A DNA stretch of 61,590 nt, counting the filler, from Rhabdomonas costata (taxonomy: Eukaryota), in assembly GCA_019059605.1 (NCBI GenBank). It is 22 parts of 22 records of this genome, joined end to end, with 100 filler letters (N's around TTAATTAATTAA, not from the genome) between each part and the next. Parts side by side here need not be neighbours in the genome. Positions count along the whole stretch, not along the records: positions 1 to 2,700 come from JAHMHO010002301.1; 21 more parts are not named here. One strand, given 5' to 3'. The notes under the pieces were generated by a model. It made no database searches, was not told where the DNA came from, and worked only from the letters and a program-made list of their open reading frames with translations. This document shows, in pieces, positions 1-22,215 of this stretch. A program made the position numbers and the translations under genes. Numbering within the stretch: position 1 is the first letter of the stretch; each line of letters starts with the position of its first letter.

Positions 1-627
1 GTTGGTTGTTGGATCTGATGTGCTCTTCAGGAAGCGCTGAGAGTCTTGTGGATCAACTTGTTGTGGAGGGGTATCTGTTCAGCAGACCGTGCACGTATAC
101 CGGTCGTTTTTGAGCATCGCTCCTTCTTTTTTTGGGGGGAGTGGTTTGTTTTTTGTTCGGCTCTTCGTGTCCTCCGGCTCGCTTGAGACTGAGATTTGGA
201 TGGGGCATCTTCGTCTGAAATAGGAACGTATTCGGAAAACTAGATCTTCTCCTGTTAGGTTGTTAGAAGTTGCGAGGGTGACTTTCGATGCTTTTGCCAG
301 GTTGCGGTATTTGTGTGGTGATGATGTGTGTGGTTATCATTAAGCTTCGGGTTCTGCCGTACCCATAAGGGCTGCTGTGGAGAAGGCTTCAACGATTCTG
401 GTGCTTTATGTCACCAACACAAATGGGACACAAATGTGATGAAAAGTGTTATTCTGAATCAAATGGGATGGGGTGCGTGTGTAAGGGAAGGCACTCCGAT
501 TGAGACATGAGATGTGGCAAATGAGCCAACTGAGCAGAGCTAGGCAGAAAATGGTTCCCAGGCAGGTTTCGTGGAGTGGAGTTTTGGGAGAGATCTGGAG
601 TGGGAAAGCATAATCATAAATCCTATT

Positions 628-891
628 GGCACACCTTCAGCAGTGTACCTTTTTTTATGGACACGTGGCCTCCTAACCCCATGCGAGATGAAATATCGTG
701 ATCCAGGGGGCACGTGCATCGCTTCCTAACCCCCTGCGAGATCAATAAAAGGATACCATCAGTGCAAATGTCCATTACCTCTTAACCTCCCTCGGAGCGT
801 CGTCACGGCCAAGATCCAGAACATCATAAAGTGTCAGCATGAGCAACAGAAGGAGCCTTAAAGAAAAAAGGTACACTGCTGAAGGAGTGCC
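628..891. mobile_element. 264-bp MITE with 28-bp TIRs and 8-bp TSD (Merlin/IS1595-like GG termini)
   Basis: TIR GGCACACCTTCAGCAGTGTACCTTTTTT at 628-655 matches the reverse complement of 864-891 with 1 mismatch. Flanking direct repeat ATCCTATT at 620-627 and 892-899. No coding capacity. Confidence 0.88.
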
Positions 892-1478
892 ATCCTATTT
901 ATTCCTTTTCGGTGTACTGTCCCCCCCCCCATCGCGAAATTTTACGGAAGTTTGTGGTTTATATCATAATGTAATGAAAAACATCATAATTTGACATAAT
1001 ATGCCAATACACAAGAGGAATAGATGCAGACAATCAGTTCTGTCATTCTGCTGTCTTGATTACGTGCCACCGCATAACAAGTTGACAAGGATTGAAGGAC
1101 TGAAAAATCCGCACAGTTCAGATACACAGCAAAGCACGGGGCAGGCAGTCTTTCAACAAGACAAGCAGTCGACTAACTGAACTAAGTGAGCAACAATGAA
1201 CTGTAGCAAGGCAGAGAGCAATTCAGAAAGAACGCAAAATAGCTAACTGAGTTTGCCAATGACAGAGAGCGAGCGAATGAAAACATTGAAAAATCATTAA
1301 GTCACAGGGGAGTTGGACGAAAGGTCGAAAGAGAGGGGGTTTCCGAGACGAGGAAAGGAGGAGGACGGGAAAAAAAAGAGCTGCAACCTCGGTGAAGACG
1401 AGTAATAACACGTTTCGTGAAAAACCAAAGCGACACCGACCAGGTGCTTGCTATCGCACATTGTTCCAGTTCAGCGAA

Positions 1479-2675
1479 ATGCGGTATTTCCTCTTGATAT
1501 GTGTGGCTGTGGCGCCGCCGCTCCTTGCTTCCCTGGCCGAGGCCTTGACTGTCATGTCGGGGCTCTTCTTCTACCATGACTGCTGCCTTACATTGTGCAC
1601 GTCGGGATTTTGCACTGCCATGGAGCTGCAGCGTTACCACCCGTTCTGTACCAACCAGACCTGCTTCAATGCCCTCCAAAGAGACCGTGAACTCTTCACG
1701 AACGTCTTCAAGACTGCGGTTGACCAAGTGTGTTCGGCGCACGCCACAGCCGGGGGTGACCCCCTTGTATGCCAGCGCTATGATGTAGTGGTCTCGGACG
1801 GTCCAGGCGATGATTCGTTACTGTGGACAAAGCCAGCGTTCCAGAAGCTCGCTCCCTCACCCCGGTGGGTCTACCAAGGTCACCATCGGTGCCATGCTGC
1901 GGCGGCGTTCTACGGCTCACCCTTCAAGACGGCGCTTGCTCTTTCCTTGGATGGGGTTACTCTTTTGGCGTTCTATGCGAGCCGAAGTCAGGGATTGCGT
2001 ATGCTCAAAATGGCGCCCGAGGGTCACAACCCTGTGGAAGCGTGGAGTCATTGCGTCTTAGGTGCGCCTCAGGCTGTTCTTCCTGTTCTGTTTTGTTTTG
2101 GGCTCTATCACTTTCACATTTTACTGTCACTCCCAACCCAAATGCGGGGACCCCGACGTTTCTGGTTTTTGCCGATGAAAGTGGTGCATTCCTTGATGTC
2201 AGGAAATGAACACCTCAATGCTGTGGGTGCCATCATTTGCTTTGTTTTTCCTCTCTCTTTCTTTGGGTGGCAATGGGATTTTGTGTACAGCGATGCATAC
2301 CACTGCCGGAAACGTTCCGGTGGTATCCCCTGCTGCACTCCAGATGGAGATCGCCGCAGCGGGTCAACCGAAACGGGAAATTACCGAACTTATTCTGCAG
2401 TTAATGAATCGGTCATGGACAGTGTCTCAGAAACAGATCAAGGACCTTGCTTCTCGACTACCTTTGCAACATATGCCTAACTTTCTGGCTAGTGCGCAGC
2501 GCGCCTTGGAGTTGTATGTCATGGACTTCCTGAGCTCCCTTGAGGTGAAACATCTCAACGTGGAAGGGATTGTAGTGGGTGGTGGGGCGGCATACAATGT
2601 GTTTCTGAATGCGCTTCTTGTGAAGGAGTTTCGGCTGCCATTGTATGTCCCCCCGGGCCCTGGGGATGCCACCGT
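1479..2675 (+). CDS. NodU/CmcH-family carbamoyltransferase, N-terminal Kae1-like domain (3' partial, 2 exons)
   Basis: Exons 1479-2061 and 2291-~2675 joined by a phase-1 GT-AG intron (2062-2290) that restores the frame. Motifs GLFFYHDCC..ELQRY, HHRCHAAAAFYGSPFKTALALSLDG and VVGGGAAYNVFLN..LYVPPGPGD match the family. Hydrophobic N-terminus MRYFLLICVAVAPPLLASLAEA. Confidence 0.85.
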
Positions 2676-2700
2676 GGCCCGGGGGGACATATAACAACAA

Positions 2701-2800
2701 NNNNNNNNNNNNNNNNNNNNNNNNNNNNNNNNNNNNNNNNNNNNTTAATTAATTAANNNNNNNNNNNNNNNNNNNNNNNNNNNNNNNNNNNNNNNNNNNN
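2701..2800. other. Artificial contig-joining spacer (first of 21)
   Basis: N-run/TTAATTAATTAA/N-run recurs every ~2.8 kb, starting near 5505, 8304, 11182, 13983, 16784, 19585, 22392, 25197, 27998, 30799, 33599, 36400, 39199, 41998, 44798, 47597, 50399, 53197, 55995 and 58793. Confidence 0.99.
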
Positions 2801-3324
2801 GGGGGGTGGGTTGTTGGGCGTTGAAACGGAGTGAAATTGCGGCAAATTCTCATTTTTTGGTTAGCGTGTGAGGTCACGGACAGATGCAGGCAGCCGGGGA
2901 CCCATTGCTCTGTTTGAGTAAAGAAGGCTGCCCACATCTACGTGGGGATTTCGACAGACGATCGTTGATCGTCAAAGATCACTTGTACAGGGGGACGGGG
3001 GGTGGAGAGAAGGCGATGCAACTGTGCCCCTTTTTGTCTCTGGCGATGTGTACGAGAGAGAGAGTCTAGGTGCTTGCGGCTTTCCGTCCTGATCATCACC
3101 AAAAATAAACATTAACAACGTCCATCACATTCTTGCCGCTGGTAGCGGGCGCTACGCCTTTTGGGTAGTTGCTGAGCCTAAGCGACAAACTTGGGGGAGG
3201 GGGGTCTCCTGTACTACGTTCAATGCTTTCGTTGTGGCACCATGACGGCCACTGGGGTACACAGTAATGGCAAAATTGCATCGATTCTCTTTTCGGTGGA
3301 CGACCGGAGGCCGGTTTTCAGCAC

Positions 3325-5032
3325 CTTTGTGGTGGCGTCGATGAGGTAGATCACAAAGCTCTCCCAGGAGATGTAGTCCATGTTGTTGGTGTCCACCGCC
3401 CGAAAGAGCTCGCTGAGGCAGAAGTGCAGCACGCGGTCATCTCTGAAGTAGTCCACCTGTGTCGGGAAGGGGTGGGGATAGTGAAGGACGAGGTGCTCGC
3501 CTGTCGTTTCACTGACCACAGCCGCCCTGCCCACTAAAATTGTTCACACTAGCGGGCTTTCTGCAGCGTTTCAGGCAAACAGCTCAATGGGGCTCCATCC
3601 CACATAACGAAAGGTCAGCCATTTCCAAAAGCAATCCCAGAGGGAATGATTTCGGATAACGCTCCTGAATTCTGCTCCGGGCAGCTTCGCCAGCGACCGT
3701 AATCTTGATCACACAAAGAACCCCCGAATCACTTCGCAGACCCGAAGCACGCGCAGACCTGCCCGACACGGGCATTGGCGCTGCCAAAGATGGCCTCGTA
3801 CTCGTGCTCGATGGCTCGGTCCCGGTCGCGGTGGGGGAGCTTGGGCTGCGGCATCCCCCTTGAAAATCCCCCCCCCAATACGGTAGAATAGCAGATAAGA
3901 AGTGCAGGACAAACTTTCTTGCTTGGGAGAGCTAGCCTGGTGCTCTGGTTTGAGGGCGTGCTGTGATCAGATTATAGTTAGGCTCAGCAGCTTGCTCAAG
4001 ATTCTCAATCAAATCAACTGGGCGATGCGGAGGAGGATTAAAATCACACACACACACATGGAAGATTTCCCTCTATATCTTTCTGCATTGGGTCCCGCTT
4101 CGTTCTTGTGGTGGTTTGCAGTTAGAGCCCACACCACTGCGCGCACCTCAGGAGGCCCCCCACGACGGCCTCGCGGTAGGCCCCCTCGATCTTCGCCATG
4201 TGCCACAGCCCACCGGAGGCCTGCCGCACCACGGAGTGCAACGGATCGTGCTCCCCCCGCAATTCGCCATGCTCCGCATCCCCGTCTCCGGCTCCCCCGC
4301 CCTCCTTGGGGGGCCCTCCGCTCCCGGCCGCGGAGACCCCCAGGAAGCCCAGCGAGAGCGTGCGGGAGATGTCCTCGTCCACACCTTCGAGGTATGTGGA
4401 GGGCTGCCTACCCTCACGGACGGCCGCGCTGCGGTCCAGGGCAGTCCGGAGGTATGTCGCACAGATCCTCACGAACTGATCGCACTGCAAGGAAACAAAG
4501 AGATATAGATGGATGGATGTAAATATGCGTGTATGCGTGTGTCTGTCTGCTGAAACGAGAAAGCCGTTTTTTGCCAACAACAAAATCACTTGGACAGTAA
4601 TCACAGTGTCCAATGGTCAAGAAGTGCGGTTTTTCGGATGGTCTCAGAGTGCTTTATGTCCGACTGAATACAGAAAGCCACGTGGGTCATTCCAGGGGAA
4701 TGGAGAAGAATGGATGCGTTCTGAAGAAACCAGGCAAAACCAGCAAAAAGGGGACGCCAGGAAGTCATGCTCAACACGCCAATGGGGAGGACCTGGGAAA
4801 TGGATATCCGGGCCATTGTGCTCACGAGGAAGCGGGCTTGGGGTTTTGACATAAAAAGATAATAAAAAGGGGAATTCGTTCTAATGTCGGCGCGGGAACC
4901 TTGACCCCGTACTCATGCTGCCGGAACTCCTTCTCCATGAGCTCGAAGAAGCCCCCCAGCTTCTGCACCAGGTGCAGGGCGAAGTTTCGCGCCTGCTGCC
5001 TCCAGTTCTCCGTCTCGTGCGTGTGGATCAGC
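3325..5032 (-). CDS. EF-hand-containing protein, possibly the N-terminus of a WDR49/WDR64/EFCAB8-like protein (partial, 4 exons)
   Basis: Exons 5032-4900, 4484-4147, 3858-3759 and 3456-~3325 splice in frame via GT-AG. Last exon LSELFRAVDTNNMDYISWESFVIYL is EF-hand-like. Confidence 0.6.
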
Positions 5033-5116
5033 CTGACAACAGATAAGGCCGATCGTGGCCTAGCCCATCTTAGGCATCTTGAAATATACTTTTACTGCGG
5101 TAGGGGAGCTTGATAC

Positions 5117-5333
5117 GTTCTAATACCGCCAAATGGTCATAATTTTTCTAACCCTCGACAATTCCAGATTCTGGGGGACCTCTACAATTAAAAATTGTCT
5201 GTGTGTGGGCGGAAAATCAATATACCTAAACCCCATTCTGCTAAAAAAAAGAGATTTAAGAGTTAGGTATTTGGAGGTACACTGCTCCAGAAATAATATC
5301 ACTAAAAACATGACCAGTTCGGTGGTTTAGAAC
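5117..5333. mobile_element. Degenerate ~217-bp MITE-like element
   Basis: Imperfect ~30-bp inverted ends: GTTCTAATACCGCCAAATGGTCATAATTTTT versus GTTCTAAACCACCGAACTGGTCATGTTTTT (reverse complement of the right end). AT-rich interior, no clear TSD. Confidence 0.5.
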
Positions 5334-6009
5334 TGCTGAATGCTTAACACCTATCCCATGGCATGTCCCAATACAAAAATTGATTCTGTTCTGTTTACCT
5401 CTCAAAGCCAGGCAACGACAATTCCAAAAATCCGCAAAAGCCAAAAACGCACAGCACTGCTAAATGTTTAGCGGTGCGAAACGTAAAAGTTGCCCCCACA
5501 AACANNNNNNNNNNNNNNNNNNNNNNNNNNNNNNNNNNNNNNNNNNNNTTAATTAATTAANNNNNNNNNNNNNNNNNNNNNNNNNNNNNNNNNNNNNNNN
5601 NNNNTGTTGGTGGGGTGTTGGCAGGTCTCCGAGAGGTTCGCTGCGGAAAAGGGGGTGCAGGTGTATTGAGGCGGCGCGTTTCGTAGAGCTTGACGCTGAG
5701 GATTGATAGACGGTTTTTGTTTTTACTGGGGTTGGGCGGACGAGTGGAACAGATTTTTTCGAAACGGCACTCTCTCTCACCGTTTCGGGTTTTTAGTCAG
5801 GAATTCATTTCTTCTCGGGCGATGACATGTGCAAAAGCAAGCCACTCAACTCGCTGAGGAACCTTACAAGCTGTCCAGTTGTTTAGGTCCAGACGACTGT
5901 CTTCGCGTCCCTTTCGTTCCAACGGATGCAAATCGCTTCACAGTTGAAACGAAGTCAAGGACTTCCGCTGTGTTCGGGGATGCACGAATGGGTATATGTG
6001 GGGACTGAC

Positions 6010-8200
6010 CGTCGGAAGGCGGCTCGTAAGGCTCGGCGCACATCCGCACCAGGCCCTGGCGATAGAAGAAGATGCGCAAGGGCGTCGCGGAGAGCACCAG
6101 GACGTAGCAGCGGAGGTCGAACTTACGGCCGTCGATGAGCATGGGCCGCGACACGTACTCCTTTGGGTGATAGGGTTGAGGGGGAGGGGGATTCACCCCA
6201 AACCAATTTTTGCCACAAATTTGGAGTTTTCAAAAAAAAAATTCACAACGGGTTGGGTCCTCAAGCTCAAGAAGACTAGGAATGAAGAAAAAGCAAGAGG
6301 ATAACGGCTTATGAAAGTTGAAAACTATACAATTCTGGTACACTTTGGTGCAGTTTTCGTTAAGATGGGCTCACCAATGCCTCACACACTCACGCACGCC
6401 TCATTTGCATACTCACGCGTCGCCTCACCCCGCGCCTTCATTGTCCTGGTTACACTTTTCCTTCCTCTCCCTCCCGCTTCCCGCGCTTATCCCCGTTTCT
6501 TTTCCGCATTCTTGCCGCTCAGTTGAACAAACCTCTGGACATTCTTGCTGTCAGTGTTGTGACTCTGCTCTGATGCTGTTGGAGTTGAGATGGAGCAATG
6601 ATTATAACCAAACCTTATTGCATCGTGAGTCACATACTCAGTCCATGGATGAGGCATATAGGAAAAGACGTATGCAAGGCTGAAGAGAAATTCACAAGAA
6701 AACGTGGGACGAGTGACCCAACCCCCGGCAGCGCTGTGGAGAGCGGACACCTGAACCACGTGGTTCTCAAAGTCCTTAGGATTGGGAGTGCTGGTGAGGT
6801 GGATGCCCTTTCCCATGCACCCATTGTTGGGCTGAGAATAGCGAGCGCGTGGGAGCAAAAAGCGCAGGCGCACACTTCGGCTTTGTGCAGAACTACTTTG
6901 CATTGGGGGATTACCCGTGGCGACGGGTACGGTTCTTACCAAGAGTGTCAGAAAGCCAGAGGTAGGGATCCACGGCGTCTTCTCAGAGAGTGGACGGATT
7001 GGACTGCACCATTATCGTTAACCAACATCATGCTTGACGAAGACGGTTGCAATGTCGGCAACTCGCAACATCCAACATTGACTCTGGGGAATGGGGGTGC
7101 GACACCTGGAGTCATTTTCCTTTGACAAATGTTGTGTTCTTGAAGGAATGCACACACATTTCTGTTTTTCTCTTCCGGTCCACCATTCAGCGGCTGAACG
7201 TGCACCTCCCGCTCCAGGGCACATTGTACACCTGTAGTAGCAAGCTTGAGTGCAACGCACGCACACCCTCCCGTATGACCAAGCTTTCGCTTCACATGAT
7301 GAGCTGCAGCTTCACAAAAAGAAGGTCTTCACCCCATTGGGCCGAGAAAAGCTGCATTGGGTGTGTACGCACCTTGACGATGTAGTAGGTCTTTGGGGCT
7401 TTCTTTCCCTTGGGCCGCAGCGAGGCCTGCCTGGCAGCCTCCGCGGAGTACTCACGGAAGTCTGTGAAGGTCCTCGGGAGGAAGTCAAACTCCCCAGGGA
7501 AGAGCTTTTTCATCCGCCCGACGTTAATAGCCTGGCGCACACCGGGACAATACTACAGTAGGCGGCACGCTAAAGTCAACGGCGGTCACACAAGAAAGAA
7601 AATGGCGCGCGCACACAGTGAACAGATCTACAGGTTTAATACCGCCGAGGAAGATGGGGTAAGTGTTTTGCAGAGAGGGTGAGTGAGTGGGTAAGTGAGT
7701 GAGTGTCTGCAACCGTGGGTGCACGCAAACGCAGGCATGCCAAGGGGATTTTCCGCGCGATGAGGTCCATGGAGGGGAAGTGGTTCACCAGCCTGTGGGT
7801 CTGGTTCAGGCGGGCCACCCTCTCCACAGACACAGAGAGGTCAGTCCAAAAGATGTGGTACTCCTAGTGAACGGGAACAGCCGGAGGTTACACCATTTGT
7901 GAAGATTAACATCTCACTTCGAGAAGCCCCGGTATCAATGTTGGCAAGTACACGGAAACCCGTTCCTTCCAACATTGACTCTGAAGAAGACGGGTGTGAG
8001 ATCCTGGATTCACTGTATATTTGGCAAATGTTGTAGGTCCTCTCTCTTCAGAGCAGTACAGCAAAACTGAAGTTGCTGAACTCACATCTTTGGGTCCAGA
8101 CTGTGCCGCCACCTCGGCGTTGGTCTCTACCTGTAAACGAAATTTGTGCCATTCCTCTGCCACAGCCCCGTAAGCATCCACAAAACCCTTCAATGAAAAT
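6010..8200 (-). CDS. Tubulin polyglutamylase, TTLL6/TTLL13-like (partial, 5 exons)
   Basis: Exons ~8200-8086, 7863-7741 (IFWTDLSVSVERV..VNHFPSMDLIARK), 7531-7373 (FDFLPRTF..YYIVK), 6831-6751 (PNNGCMGKGIHL..VVQ) and 6160-6010 (EYVSRPMLIDGRKFDLRCYVLV..GLVRMCAEPY) give the TTL-domain motifs in order. Confidence 0.92.
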
Positions 8201-19726: not shown

Positions 19727-22215
19727 CTGCTGTCTTTCGCGGCGAACTTGCCTCGCGTCTGAAACCCAAGAAAAGCAAGGAGGATTCCTCCAGCGATGAG
19801 GACGAGGAGAAGGCCTCTGGGGACGATGAGAGCGAAGAGGGCCAAAAGAATCCTGCTCAGGTTTCGGTTTTATCAAAGTGGTCAGTAGTGGCACATCCAC
19901 ACCTTTCGTTCTTTCTTTCTACTTCTTTTTTTTTAAGGGGCTTTATGGTTTTTCTTTTGAACACACCAGCTCGCTTTGGGTCGTCTCACCCGCGGCCCTT
20001 AAGTTTATGCGGCTGTTTTTATTTTCAGAAGCCGCGGCGAGTTTGGTGGACCACCGAAAAACAAAGAGGGAGAAAAGAAACAGAGAGAGGAAGAGTAGGA
20101 GGGAGGGAGGAACCCGCTGAGCGCGGTCTTCTATCCGTCCCAACGACGCATGAAAAAGTGTGCGGAGAGGGAGGCTTCAAACCTTACGCTATGCTGTCTC
20201 AGAAAGTAGCACAGAGAGAGCACAGAACAAAAACTCATGTAGCACACCCGCACCCGACTAATGTAGCAACGAGCAACGGCTCATTTGAACTTCAGTGTCG
20301 GGAGGTTCTCAGGAAAATGGTTCTGGGGTGAGTACAACGAAGGGAGTTCCGGCAACGCCTCCCCCTCAAGCTACGTGCAAGCCTCACAAAGCTGGTGCCC
20401 AATGCCCTTGTGAAGAGCAACTGAGACCCTCTCCCAACACAGGGTTTGGAATTGACCTGGAAAATGCTGTTCAATTTCACGGCCAACCCGCTTCGCATAC
20501 CGAGCAAACAACTTAGCGAGAAACTCGCGCCCCTGTGGAACATACCCTCCAATAGTGCATATTGCAACGGGAAAGAAGTAAAAATCCAGCTTCGTTGCAC
20601 AGGGCAAGGGGTTTGTTGTTCTTCTGAGGTTTCATCAGTGTGATCAGTAGTGGCAGATCCACACCTTTCTTTCTTTCTGCTTTCATTTTGTTTTTTGACT
20701 TTCCGCGTTGGTGCTTCGCAGGTGCTGTTGGAATCGTTGAAGGAGAAATGCGAGCAGGACACCAGTGGCCGGGCCATCGCTCAGTTGCTGGATATGCAAG
20801 TTTTGGTGCCAAAGTGTGTTTTTTCCGGACGCTTTCTTTCTCTTTCTCGTTCCATCATCTCCTGTTCTTTCCTCTCCCTCTTCTTCACATACCCTCTTTT
20901 CATGCCTTTGTCTATAACTCAGTTGGACTTGTGCTTTTTGTTGTATAATGTTTTTGTCGTGCCACAATCGCGCATTCCTATGCTAGTGAGCAAGATGGTC
21001 ACCACGTCCGTCAACTGCGCCCGTTTTGAGCAGATGAAGTTGCGTGATGGGGTTCAGTGGATCTGGGATGATAAATGTTCCGTATGTCATTTGGTAGGAT
21101 GGACCCCCGCGGTCACCGGCAAACCACTTCGCCCGTTTGGTTCTGCATGCTTTTGTGTGTGGGTTTGGGAGCATGCTCTGCTGCTTTTTTATTTCACCTT
21201 ACCCGTCAGAGCCCGTCTGGATTTCGACTTGTTCAAGACAACCATGCGAGTCAGGGGTAAGAAGCAATCCTGGATGGTCACCTACGCTGACATCACGCAG
21301 ATGTTTCTGCTCCCTGCACCGGATGGAGTTACCCGCTATCTTGTGGTGTGACGAACTCTTGCGCCATTTCCAGCCGATGTTCCTTTTTTCATCTACTCAT
21401 CCATTGCTTTTTTACCCCTCCAGAATCACCACTTGGGGATGTTTTGATTAGTGGCGCGTGTCGAGAGTGCCGTGAGTCAACTTCTGTGTTCAGAAATGCA
21501 ATGCTCGCATTGGTTCGAACGATAACCGGAGCACAACAAGAAAACTCGGAATATTCTGGCTTGTGATTTCTCATGATGAATTATGTGAAACTCTCCCGAT
21601 ACTGATCTGCGATTTTGCCCATCCCAAAACCATAATTGGGTGGTGATTCGTTGCAGCGGCGTTTCTCATCATGTGGTGGACGATTTAAAGTTGCACACAA
21701 ACACACACCTCCCCCGTCGCCGGCCACCTTCTTTGCGATTCTGTGCATGTTCCGCCTTTCCATCTGCGTGATTCAGCTGTCCCTTTCGAAGCCTTTGAAG
21801 CAAGGGCAGACCCCGTATTACTTCTTGGTGCTGTCCTTCAATGAAAACGTTTTGTTGGGGGAAGAGGATCCCTTCCGTCTCACTCTGACCGAGTACGTGA
21901 GACTTCCGCTTTTAGCATCCCTTCCGTGGGGTCTCCTCCTTTATAATGCTCCTCGCTTTCATTTGGCTGTTTCTTTTATGGTTCCCCTTCTCCAGAGAAG
22001 AGCTCAACGAGCTGAATGGCAAAGAATCTGGCCCCAAGCTGAGTCTGCAAATGACAGGTGTTTCGGAGGGGATTCTCGGAATTCTTGTTTTTATTGTTTC
22101 CCTGCAACATGGTGAATTCATTCCCTCGCTTTTCAGGTCCGCTGTTCGAGCTCGTTGCTAAGGTACTCAAAGTCTTCTCCGGGGCAAAGGTCATCGGTCC
22201 GAGCAAATTCGTCAG
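19727..22215 (+). CDS. SSRP1: FACT complex subunit SSRP1/Pob3 (internal part, 6 exons)
   Basis: Exons ~19727-19860, 20722-20813, 21210-21345, 21777-21892, 21996-22057 and 22137-22215 splice in frame. VLVPKARLDFDLF..MFLLPAPD..LSLSKPLKQGQTPYYFLVLSF..GPLFELVAKVLK matches the SSRP1 middle domain. Confidence 0.92.

Follow-up and report, generated by a model that had tools for sequence, protein, structure and literature searches.

The DNA analysed here (the window) is a stretch of 61,590 bases from the euglenid Rhabdomonas costata, composed of 22 pieces of about 2.7-2.8 kilobases (kb) each, between which lie 21 identical linkers of 100 nucleotides (nt; 44 N, TTAATTAATTAA, 44 N). The gene under study is carbamoyltransferase-like and resides on the first piece, positions 1-2700. 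Judged from its sequence, it codes for a very divergent carbamoyltransferase of class III (TobZ/NodU type), the Kae1-like N-domain of which lies on the contig, and we consider it reasonably probable that the product is a secretory-pathway transferase that has kept its transfer site and obtains a donor made elsewhere. Since the pieces are unrelated contigs, gene order across the linkers is uninformative and the sequence beyond 2700 is unrelated to the gene; for the same reason, its ranking in an earlier, sequence-only reading as the best pathway candidate in the window cannot rest on neighbours. The contig is laid out as follows (aa, amino acids; GC, G+C content):

6..110, + strand: 3' end of an upstream copy (copy A), last 34 codons and TGA at 108-110; extreme C-terminal tail of the family's C-domain
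111..1478, + strand: spacer from copy A to copy B, GC 46%; no in-frame ATG 5' of 1479
1479..2061, + strand: exon 1 of copy B (minimal extent; may extend to 2073-2075 or 2094), first half of the Kae1-like domain
1479..1544, + strand: signal-peptide-like N-terminus, aa 1-22; R2, an 18-residue uncharged run, and A-E-A before L23
1575-1580, + strand: HD motif, H33/D34, with the general-base His33 at 1575-1577
1881-1895, + strand: HHRCH motif, aa 135-139, with the metal ligands H135 (1881-1883) and H139 (1893-1895)
1950-1955, + strand: DG motif, D158/G159, with the metal ligand D158 (1950-1952)
2062..2290, + strand: intron as modelled in the sequence-only reading (model a), GTGCG...ACAG, phase 1, 229 nt, GC 46.7%
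2291..2675, + strand: exon 2 of copy B (partial, ended by the contig end), second half of the Kae1-like domain
2578-2598, + strand: GGGAAYN nucleotide loop (GGxxxN), in exon 2
2665-2667, + strand: fourth metal ligand, the Asp of PPGPGD, aligned to GdmN D333
2676..2700, no strand assigned: contig-end fold-back, in which 2676-2694 is an inverted copy of 2641-2659 (19 nt, 95%); the linker follows

Copy B starts at 1479, with the only ATG in 1400-1481; counted from the in-frame TGA stop at 1287, it is also the first one. The frame of exon 1 is open from this ATG past 2061, and exon 2 lies in another frame, which is open from 2197 to 2694. Because no single frame covers both halves of the domain, an intron is required, as had been proposed; in the proper frames, 322 codons (194 + 128) are open. 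Exon 1 and exon 2 have a GC of 57.5% and 53.2%, respectively, compared with 46.7% in the intron and 46% in the spacer, and the GC of third codon positions (GC3) is 66.5% in exon 1, 57% in exon 2 and 47% in the intron when it is read in frame. This composition supports the exon/intron layout. Directly before the ATG at 1479, a pyrimidine run is followed by CAG/TCAG, possibly a candidate spliced-leader acceptor.

At the left end of the contig, positions 6-104 match residues 340-372 of P0002 (tblastn, expectation value (E) 2.6e-5, 48% identity) and residues 215-243 of P0007 (tblastn, E 1.4e-5, 52% identity), two related proteins from ENA. These matches indicate that the contig opens within the closing part of a paralogue situated upstream on the same strand and that the family is tandemly arrayed at this locus. 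As the matched segments are C-domain tails, the family possesses a C-domain, of which the window contains the last 34 codons of copy A and nothing else. At the right end, the fold-back looks like an artefact of assembly or amplification; the TAA at 2692-2694 lies inside the inverted copy and is therefore not the true stop of the gene. The homologues P0001, P0002 and P0005 continue beyond the fold-back point (...LGAAWLAE; P0002 into the C-domain), and the gene is truncated by the end of the 2700-nt contig.

The assignment to the carbamoyltransferases, made earlier from motifs, is borne out by profile and structure searches. The Pfam model PF02543 (Carbam_trans_N; gathering cut-off 24 bits) matches both exon 1 (24.4 bits, E 2.4e-5, profile positions 127-161) and exon 2 (28.9 bits, E 9.9e-7, profile positions 249-343), in each case just above the cut-off; the homologues P0001 and P0005 score 56.6 and 52.3 bits. 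The phage profile phrog_1601 ('Nol-like carbamoyltransferase') outscores the Pfam model on every clade member tested (26.6 bits for exon 1, 33.3 for exon 2, 69.6 for P0001 and 87.5 for P0005), and an NCBIfam search of the window protein gave no meaningful match. An AlphaFold2 model was computed for P0001 from an 85-row alignment (predicted local distance difference test score (pLDDT) 89.7, predicted template modelling score 0.87). Its best matches in the PDB by Foldseek are TobZ (3ven, E 9.5e-14), GdmN, NovN and VtdB, followed by TsaD/Kae1; the sequence-only matches of P0001 to these structures are weak (E 1.8e-5 to 6e-4).

All N-domain motifs that had been listed for NodU and CmcH, two enzymes that by their names we take to be class III carbamoyltransferases, are present at the positions given for them (HD, HHxxH, DG, GG..N and PPGPGD). 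In GdmN, H133, H137, D156 and D333 are the iron ligands and H27 is the general base, whose replacement (H27N) abolishes activity, according to the available text of PMC9633730. In HMMER alignments, H33, H135, H139, D158 and the Asp of PGPGD of the window protein align onto GdmN H27, H133, H137, D156 and D333, and an H14N variant of TobZ is listed among the PDB titles. The columns H-H..H, D, Q, GG, N and D are identical in 62-67 of 67 full-length relatives of the bacterial/viral type. Since the window protein has kept every one of them, its transfer half looks competent, as far as can be told from sequence. It differs from these relatives by an E to Q change in the first helix motif and a G to T change after the last Asp.

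The closest proteins in the searched collections come from R. costata itself. One is P0001 (RCo021422, 333 aa), with 72% identity to exon 1 (E 9e-93) and 77% to exon 2 (E 1.7e-52). Two further R. costata proteins, P0003 (RCo021423, a 130-aa fragment) and P0005 (RCo013555, 347 aa), are 78% and 41% identical to the window protein. The available text of the R. costata genome paper describes a protein set predicted from the transcriptome, to which the EukProt entries of this species presumably correspond. Relatives of the prokaryotic or viral type share about 20-25% identity with the window protein, as opposed to 72-78% for the euglenid proteins. As its closest relatives are R. costata proteins, the gene is, on sequence grounds, euglenid and nuclear and not a contaminant, in agreement with the sequence-only reading and with the tandem copy, the GC of the exons (53-58%) versus intron and spacer (46-47%) and the eukaryotic domains (tubulin-tyrosine ligase, SSRP1) on other contigs of the window.

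The clade is rare in public data. When exon 1 was compared with 1.84 billion cluster representatives, 18 matched at E<=1e-3, five at <=1e-10 and two at <=1e-30. Among the 18 are the ENA proteins P0004, P0006 and P0007 of the same clade, as well as P0016 from the euglenid Dinema validum and P0010, a protein of 1099 aa; P0002, an ENA protein also of this clade, came from another search. Scans of JGI metagenome contigs with clade alignments gave 130 and 121 pattern matches, none of which encodes a relative. A profile search, in which scoring covered the 8000 candidates sharing most words, returned 85 matches; among those candidates, P0001 was not relisted and no further named euglenid member was found. 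In P0007 (248 aa), the first ~60 residues, comprising a signal-like start and the first strands, run straight into the C-domain; it looks mis-joined, either as an exon-skipping gene model on a 1.6 kb contig or as an odd splice form.

The most distinctive part of the protein is its N-terminus, which was judged by inspection and simple hydropathy in a clade set of seven sequences (window, P0001 and P0003-P0007). A basic n-region, a hydrophobic h-region and small residues at -3/-1 stand before the first strand, where the sequence-only reading had noted a signal-peptide-like start, and are conserved across the clade. The HD motif is found at residue 28-35 in 7/7 clade N-termini versus 11-15 in the seven bacterial/viral-type proteins examined, and the best 12-residue Kyte-Doolittle mean is 2.05-2.72 in the clade (2.58 in the window protein) versus 0.86-1.62. 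Small residues occupy -3/-1 in all seven clade N-termini (A-E-A, V-E-A, G-N-A, C-E-A, A-N-S, G-E-S), the conserved L-T-V strand begins directly after the hydrophobic extension, and in the P0001 model the extension forms a separate helix (3-21).

Six cysteines (C40, C45, C57, C62, C85 and C98; spacing C-x4-C, C-x4-C, C-x12-C) are present in 6/6 clade rows covering them. In the 73 other rows of the alignment, Cys is found in 5, 1, 0 and 25 rows at the first four of these columns; the last two belong to a clade-only insertion. The clade cysteines could form local disulfides. The window protein also contains the sequons NQT and NRS, which are not conserved across the clade. In P0016 (336 aa), the Kae1-like domain is preceded by a short tail with charged residues, a membrane-type segment rich in Leu and a stalk rich in Pro, Ser and Thr, a layout that resembles that of a type II Golgi enzyme; the protein does not have the six clade cysteines. 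P0010 (a cluster of three proteins in ENA) combines a hydrophobic N-terminus, a PAN/apple domain, a carbamoyltransferase region and a canonical C-domain start, and is possibly an extracellular or membrane-bound carbamoyltransferase. Owing to the conserved hydrophobic extension, the clade cysteines, the layout of P0016 and the PAN domain of P0010, entry into the endoplasmic reticulum (ER) would be the best reading of the N-terminus.

The intron itself is less sharply defined at its 5' than at its 3' border. All in-frame GT/GC-AG pairs were enumerated and three splice models were kept, which share the acceptor CAG at 2288-2290; the 3' site at 2290 is thus firm, and this part of the previously proposed splice at 2062-2290 stands. 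Its donor at 2062 is one candidate among others, which lie at 2074-2076 and 2095. Model (a), with the GT at 2062, keeps the frame, and its borders GTGCG...ACAG fit the consensus of conventional introns of Euglena gracilis (GTGTG at the 5' end, CAG at the 3' end) as given in the available text of PMC11170887. It also agrees with the complete introns of six R. costata genes, 29/29 of which are GT/AG in the accessible part of PMC8219788. Homologues, however, retain residues that model (a) removes, G-(A/V)-P-(Q/E)-A, which makes it doubtful: P0001 reads C-I-L-G-V-P-E-A-M-K-P at the junction and the window, read through the donor, C-V-L-G-A-P-Q-A-V-L-P; the tblastn match to the homologue runs past 2061, up to nt 2084; and the distant P0004 also carries C-I-A-G-A. 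We regard model (a) as plausible, though short of probable. Model (c), with the weak donor GTTTT at 2095 and the acceptor at 2290, is possible but rather doubtful, and the homology-guided model (b), in which exon 1 ends at 2073-2075 and exon 2 starts at 2291-2293 with borders that are not GT-AG, is unlikely; a splice other than these three would be quite improbable.

Nonconventional introns of E. gracilis carry the terminal pairing motifs CCAGG (+3..+7) and CCTG (-9..-6), according to the same portion of PMC11170887. Neither motif is present at the borders of model (b), 2074-2290, the ends of which are joined only by a 5-bp complement (GCTGT 2073-2077 with ACAGC 2287-2291). The fold of the intron is not unusually stable (z +1.1). 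Having neither the terminal motifs nor a stable fold, the nonconventional reading was rejected, apart from being kept as a minority model. An acceptor at 2202/2203 was discarded as it would insert a 30-residue hydrophobic stretch that is missing from homologues, and donors at 2046 and 2052 as they would delete conserved residues. In the P0001 model, the splice junction falls into the least confident loop (residues 191-210, pLDDT 74 and 63 for its 10-residue blocks), and all three spliced products would therefore be tolerated.

The place of the gene in the family was assessed with a quick maximum-likelihood tree of 87 N-domains and a careful tree of 40 rows, which agree. The rows of the latter were chosen by hand and comprise all eight eukaryote-like, 18/20 sister-group and 14/59 other sequences, with P0013, P0014 and P0017 omitted; most are metagenome proteins, and the root was assumed. 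The window protein and P0001 group with a support of 100/98, and the four rows of the euglenid clade with 100/97. The grouping of these four with P0016, P0010, P0008 and P0015 (92/94) is not firmly supported. The eight eukaryote-like rows and an 18-row phage-type group are separated from the 14 other relatives with a support of 100/98. The eukaryote-like group thus appears as sister to the phage-type group, and acquisition from a prokaryote or virus, as suggested in the sequence-only reading, is plausible; the trees, with their assumed root, name neither the donor nor the direction of transfer.

Within the sister group, placement on viral contigs was checked for the P0023 cluster, which occurs on IMG/VR viral contigs of 90-134 kb (83% identity) and whose proteins match phrog_1601 at 376 bits; for the other 17 rows, 'phage-type' denotes tree position only. 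Look-alikes of P0001 and P0010 in the ESM Atlas belong to clusters labelled mostly viral. The viral genes (loci L001-L003), found on marine viral contigs, adjoin sugar-nucleotide-type genes; their neighbours resemble 2-oxoglutarate/Fe(II) (2OG-Fe(II)) oxygenases and heptose kinases/adenylyltransferases. On L001 (positions 1-7608 of an IMG/VR contig of 133,839 bases), the carbamoyltransferase has a 2OG-Fe(II) oxygenase-like gene on one side and, on the other, two genes matching a heptose kinase/adenylyltransferase family, an arrangement that looks like a sugar-modification cassette. Six marine metagenome or viral proteins of about 347 aa (P0032-P0036 and P0039) have the N-domain only and are nested among full-length phage-type proteins.

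While the transfer half looks intact, the adenylate-forming half of the nearest relatives does not. Canonical C-domains contain the adenylation motifs GR.E.GPRALGNRS, K.RE.FRPFAP, H.DG..R.QTV and NTSFN, which were used for comparison. Adenylate formation of the YrdC/Sua5 type has a KxR...SxN tetrad as its catalytic signature, and the PDB titles list K443A and S530A variants of TobZ. Across 67 full-length relatives aligned by L-INS-i, 18 columns of the C-domain are at least 95% identical. P0002 keeps 8/18 of them (two gaps, eight different) and P0007 5/18 (two gaps, 11 different), whereas P0010 keeps 11/11 covered columns and the phage-type P0023 17/18. In both P0002 and P0007, the K.RE.FRPFAP block is missing, NTSFN is lost, and GR.E.GPRALG is changed to GRQ(A)(M/L)GPHPLG, including E to A and R to H replacements. 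Against the PF16861 model (Carbam_trans_C; cut-off 27 bits), P0007 passes with 32.3 bits and P0002 falls below with 19.3 bits. Given the loss of K.RE.FRPFAP and NTSFN, the nearest relatives are probably unable to make carbamoyl-AMP in the canonical manner, and the reaction from carbamoyl phosphate and ATP that had been proposed for the ER and Golgi is doubtful.

The known class III carbamoyltransferases, from bacteria and lately also from phages, are tailoring enzymes of the cytosol; the bacterial ones act on antibiotics or Nod factors. TobZ (3VEN), GdmN (7VYJ), NovN (9S2T) and VtdB (7XB6) have the same Kae1-like N-domain fold as the P0001 model (Foldseek E 9.5e-14 to 1.7e-7) at a sequence identity of only about 18-20%. 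Shared with these enzymes are the general-base His of HD, the H/H/D/D metal site, the GGxxxN loop and, in the euglenid family, a YrdC-like C-domain. The euglenid clade differs by the hydrophobic extension of ~20 residues, the six extra Cys and a shorter loop after DG; moreover, the window gene is eukaryotic with an intron, and the C-domain of its nearest relatives is without the KxR-type block and NTSFN. Among the non-eukaryotic groups sampled, the phage 'Nol-like carbamoyltransferases' of phrog_1601 are nearest; they start at the first strand (HD at residue 13), without a hydrophobic extension, and keep 17/18 C-domain columns. Second-tier structural matches (E 5.5e-8 and weaker) are Kae1/TsaD/Qri7 of N6-threonylcarbamoyladenosine (t6A) synthesis, which share the ASKHA fold and the His-His-Asp metal site; their donor is threonylcarbamoyl-AMP and their acceptor tRNA, and Pfam places the window protein in Carbam_trans_N, not TsaD. 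Compared by description only, the virus-borne phage 5-hydroxymethylcytosine carbamoyltransferase has the same two Pfam domains and uses a carbamoyl-adenylate route but acts on nucleic acid (available text of PMC8670742).

These observations may be combined as follows. On the contig, the end of copy A is followed by the first two exons of copy B; both are tandem members of a lineage-specific family that presumably descended from class III (TobZ/NodU/'Nol-like') carbamoyltransferases. The product of copy B begins with a cleavable-looking signal peptide (aa 1-22), directly followed by the Kae1-like (ASKHA) transfer domain; it would enter the ER and act either in the secretory lumen or extracellularly. 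Its role could be that of a metal-dependent transferase which draws on an acyl or carbamoyl donor of the adenylate type to modify a hydroxyl group on a glycan or on a secreted metabolite. A YrdC-like adenylate-forming half is probably present downstream of the contig end but degenerate, as in the nearest relatives showing one, and because of this degeneracy the donor would not be made canonically by the same protein. It is inferred that the protein enters the ER, loses its signal by cleavage, forms disulfides and is still catalytically active, and likewise what its donor and acceptor are and in what condition its own C-domain is; the case is limited by the fragmentary locus, beyond whose sequence everything is deduction.

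Several points weigh against this proposal. The fold and its pLDDT come from the homologue P0001 rather than from the window protein, and the loop after DG is five residues shorter than in most relatives and without the usual G.GNDG, which could affect the oxyanion hole or the pocket. The gene's own C-domain lies off the contig, and its supposed degeneracy rests on P0002 and P0007 only, which have 43-52% identity with the window in the regions they have in common with it and one of which, P0007, looks mis-joined. The hydrophobic start could be an uncleaved anchor. No supply of carbamoyl phosphate or carbamoyl-AMP is known for the ER/Golgi lumen. Lastly, no protein identical to the window copy was found in the searched collections, the best matches being at 72-78%.

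The alternative that survives best, although we hold it to be unlikely, is that both domains are complete and the protein works as an O-carbamoyltransferase inside the ER or Golgi: carbamoyl phosphate and ATP would yield carbamoyl-AMP, from which the carbamoyl group would pass to glycans or to a secreted metabolite. It is favoured by the intact catalytic set of the N-domain, by the existence of a C-domain in the family (P0007 with 32.3 bits for PF16861, the copy A tail at 6-110) and by the distant P0010, which has a PAN domain and all 11 covered C-domain columns. It has to contend with P0002 and P0007, the sole close relatives with a C-half, which lack K.RE.FRPFAP and NTSFN, carry E to A and R to H in GR.E.GPRALG and, in the case of P0002, score 19.3 bits and thus below 27 for PF16861, and with the fact that no source of carbamoyl phosphate in the lumen is known.

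A less probable explanation is that this copy is a pseudogene, which is not expressed or is decaying, beside expressed paralogues of the R. costata type. The best protein match at 72-78% identity, with no identical or near-identical one found, and the ambiguous 5' splice site fit it, as does the tandem array, where redundant copies can decay. Yet the 322 codons (194 + 128) are open in the right frames, the five catalytic residues and the six clade Cys are all kept, exon GC3 is 57-67% compared with 47% for the intron read in frame, and the branch of the window protein in the tree is short (0.16) and equal to that of P0001.

Slightly less probable again is that the hydrophobic N-terminus serves as a membrane anchor or other targeting signal, leaving the domain tethered or facing the cytosol. 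Dinema P0016 looks like an anchored type II protein, not a secreted one, and the model of P0001 shows one long helix (3-21); on the other hand, the position of R2 ahead of the hydrophobic run speaks for a C-terminal domain in the lumen, 7/7 clade N-termini have kept small residues at -3/-1, and an oxidising environment would suit the six clade-specific Cys. Contamination from a bacterium or phage, or a chimera made during assembly, which the mostly prokaryotic and viral make-up of the family and the fold-back at the contig end might suggest, is highly improbable in view of the domain halves in different frames with 229 nt of lower-GC sequence between them, the 72-78% identity to euglenid proteins compared with about 20-25% for the prokaryotic/viral type, and the signal-like extension missing from the seven bacterial/viral-type proteins examined.

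Elsewhere in the window and in the spacer, further features were noted:

627-892: element of 266 bp resembling a miniature inverted-repeat transposable element (MITE), in the spacer 5' of the gene
5867-6229, - strand: exon of the tubulin-tyrosine-ligase family (TTL, PF03133, E 2.5e-20), on another piece of the window
20644-21348 and 21636-22112, + strand: SSRP1/FACT-type pleckstrin-homology (PH) domain in two open stretches, on another piece of the window

The MITE-like element has 29-nt terminal inverted repeats (97% complementary) with 208 nt between them and is flanked by TCCTAT at 621-626 and 893-898, which looks like a target-site duplication. It contains a 25-nt direct repeat (668-692 and 721-745, 88% identical, 53 nt apart), and its repeat arm has no other copy in the window. 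On the other pieces, 52/168 long open reading frames were scanned with Pfam, 48 of which had no match at E<=1e-4; Rfam returned nothing at the gathering threshold across the whole window.

Full-text searches, judged from titles and abstracts, found no literature on eukaryotic carbamoyltransferases of this kind, and the word 'carbamoyl' does not occur in the available text of the R. costata genome paper. In its most extended and still speculative form, which we regard as unlikely as a whole, the proposal is that of lineage-specific lumenal or secreted euglenid metalloenzymes of the Kae1-like type, which arose from a phage or bacterial 'Nol-type' carbamoyltransferase, gained a signal peptide and disulfides, kept the transfer half-site and lost the carbamoyl-adenylate half-site. 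They would carry out a modification not described so far, on glycans of the secretory pathway, on components of the pellicle or mucilage or on secreted metabolites, with a donor (carbamoyl-AMP or another acyl-adenylate) supplied by a partner, for example PAN-domain relatives with a canonical C-half. If true, a eukaryotic branch with a conserved ER-entry signal and clade-specific cysteines would bring carbamoyl chemistry, or something derived from it, to the secretory pathway, for which no carbamoyl donor is known. Should the transfer half work and the adenylate half be dead, the family would be a natural case of splitting a two-step enzyme and reusing one half, and it would point to an unknown modification of glycans or metabolites in euglenids.

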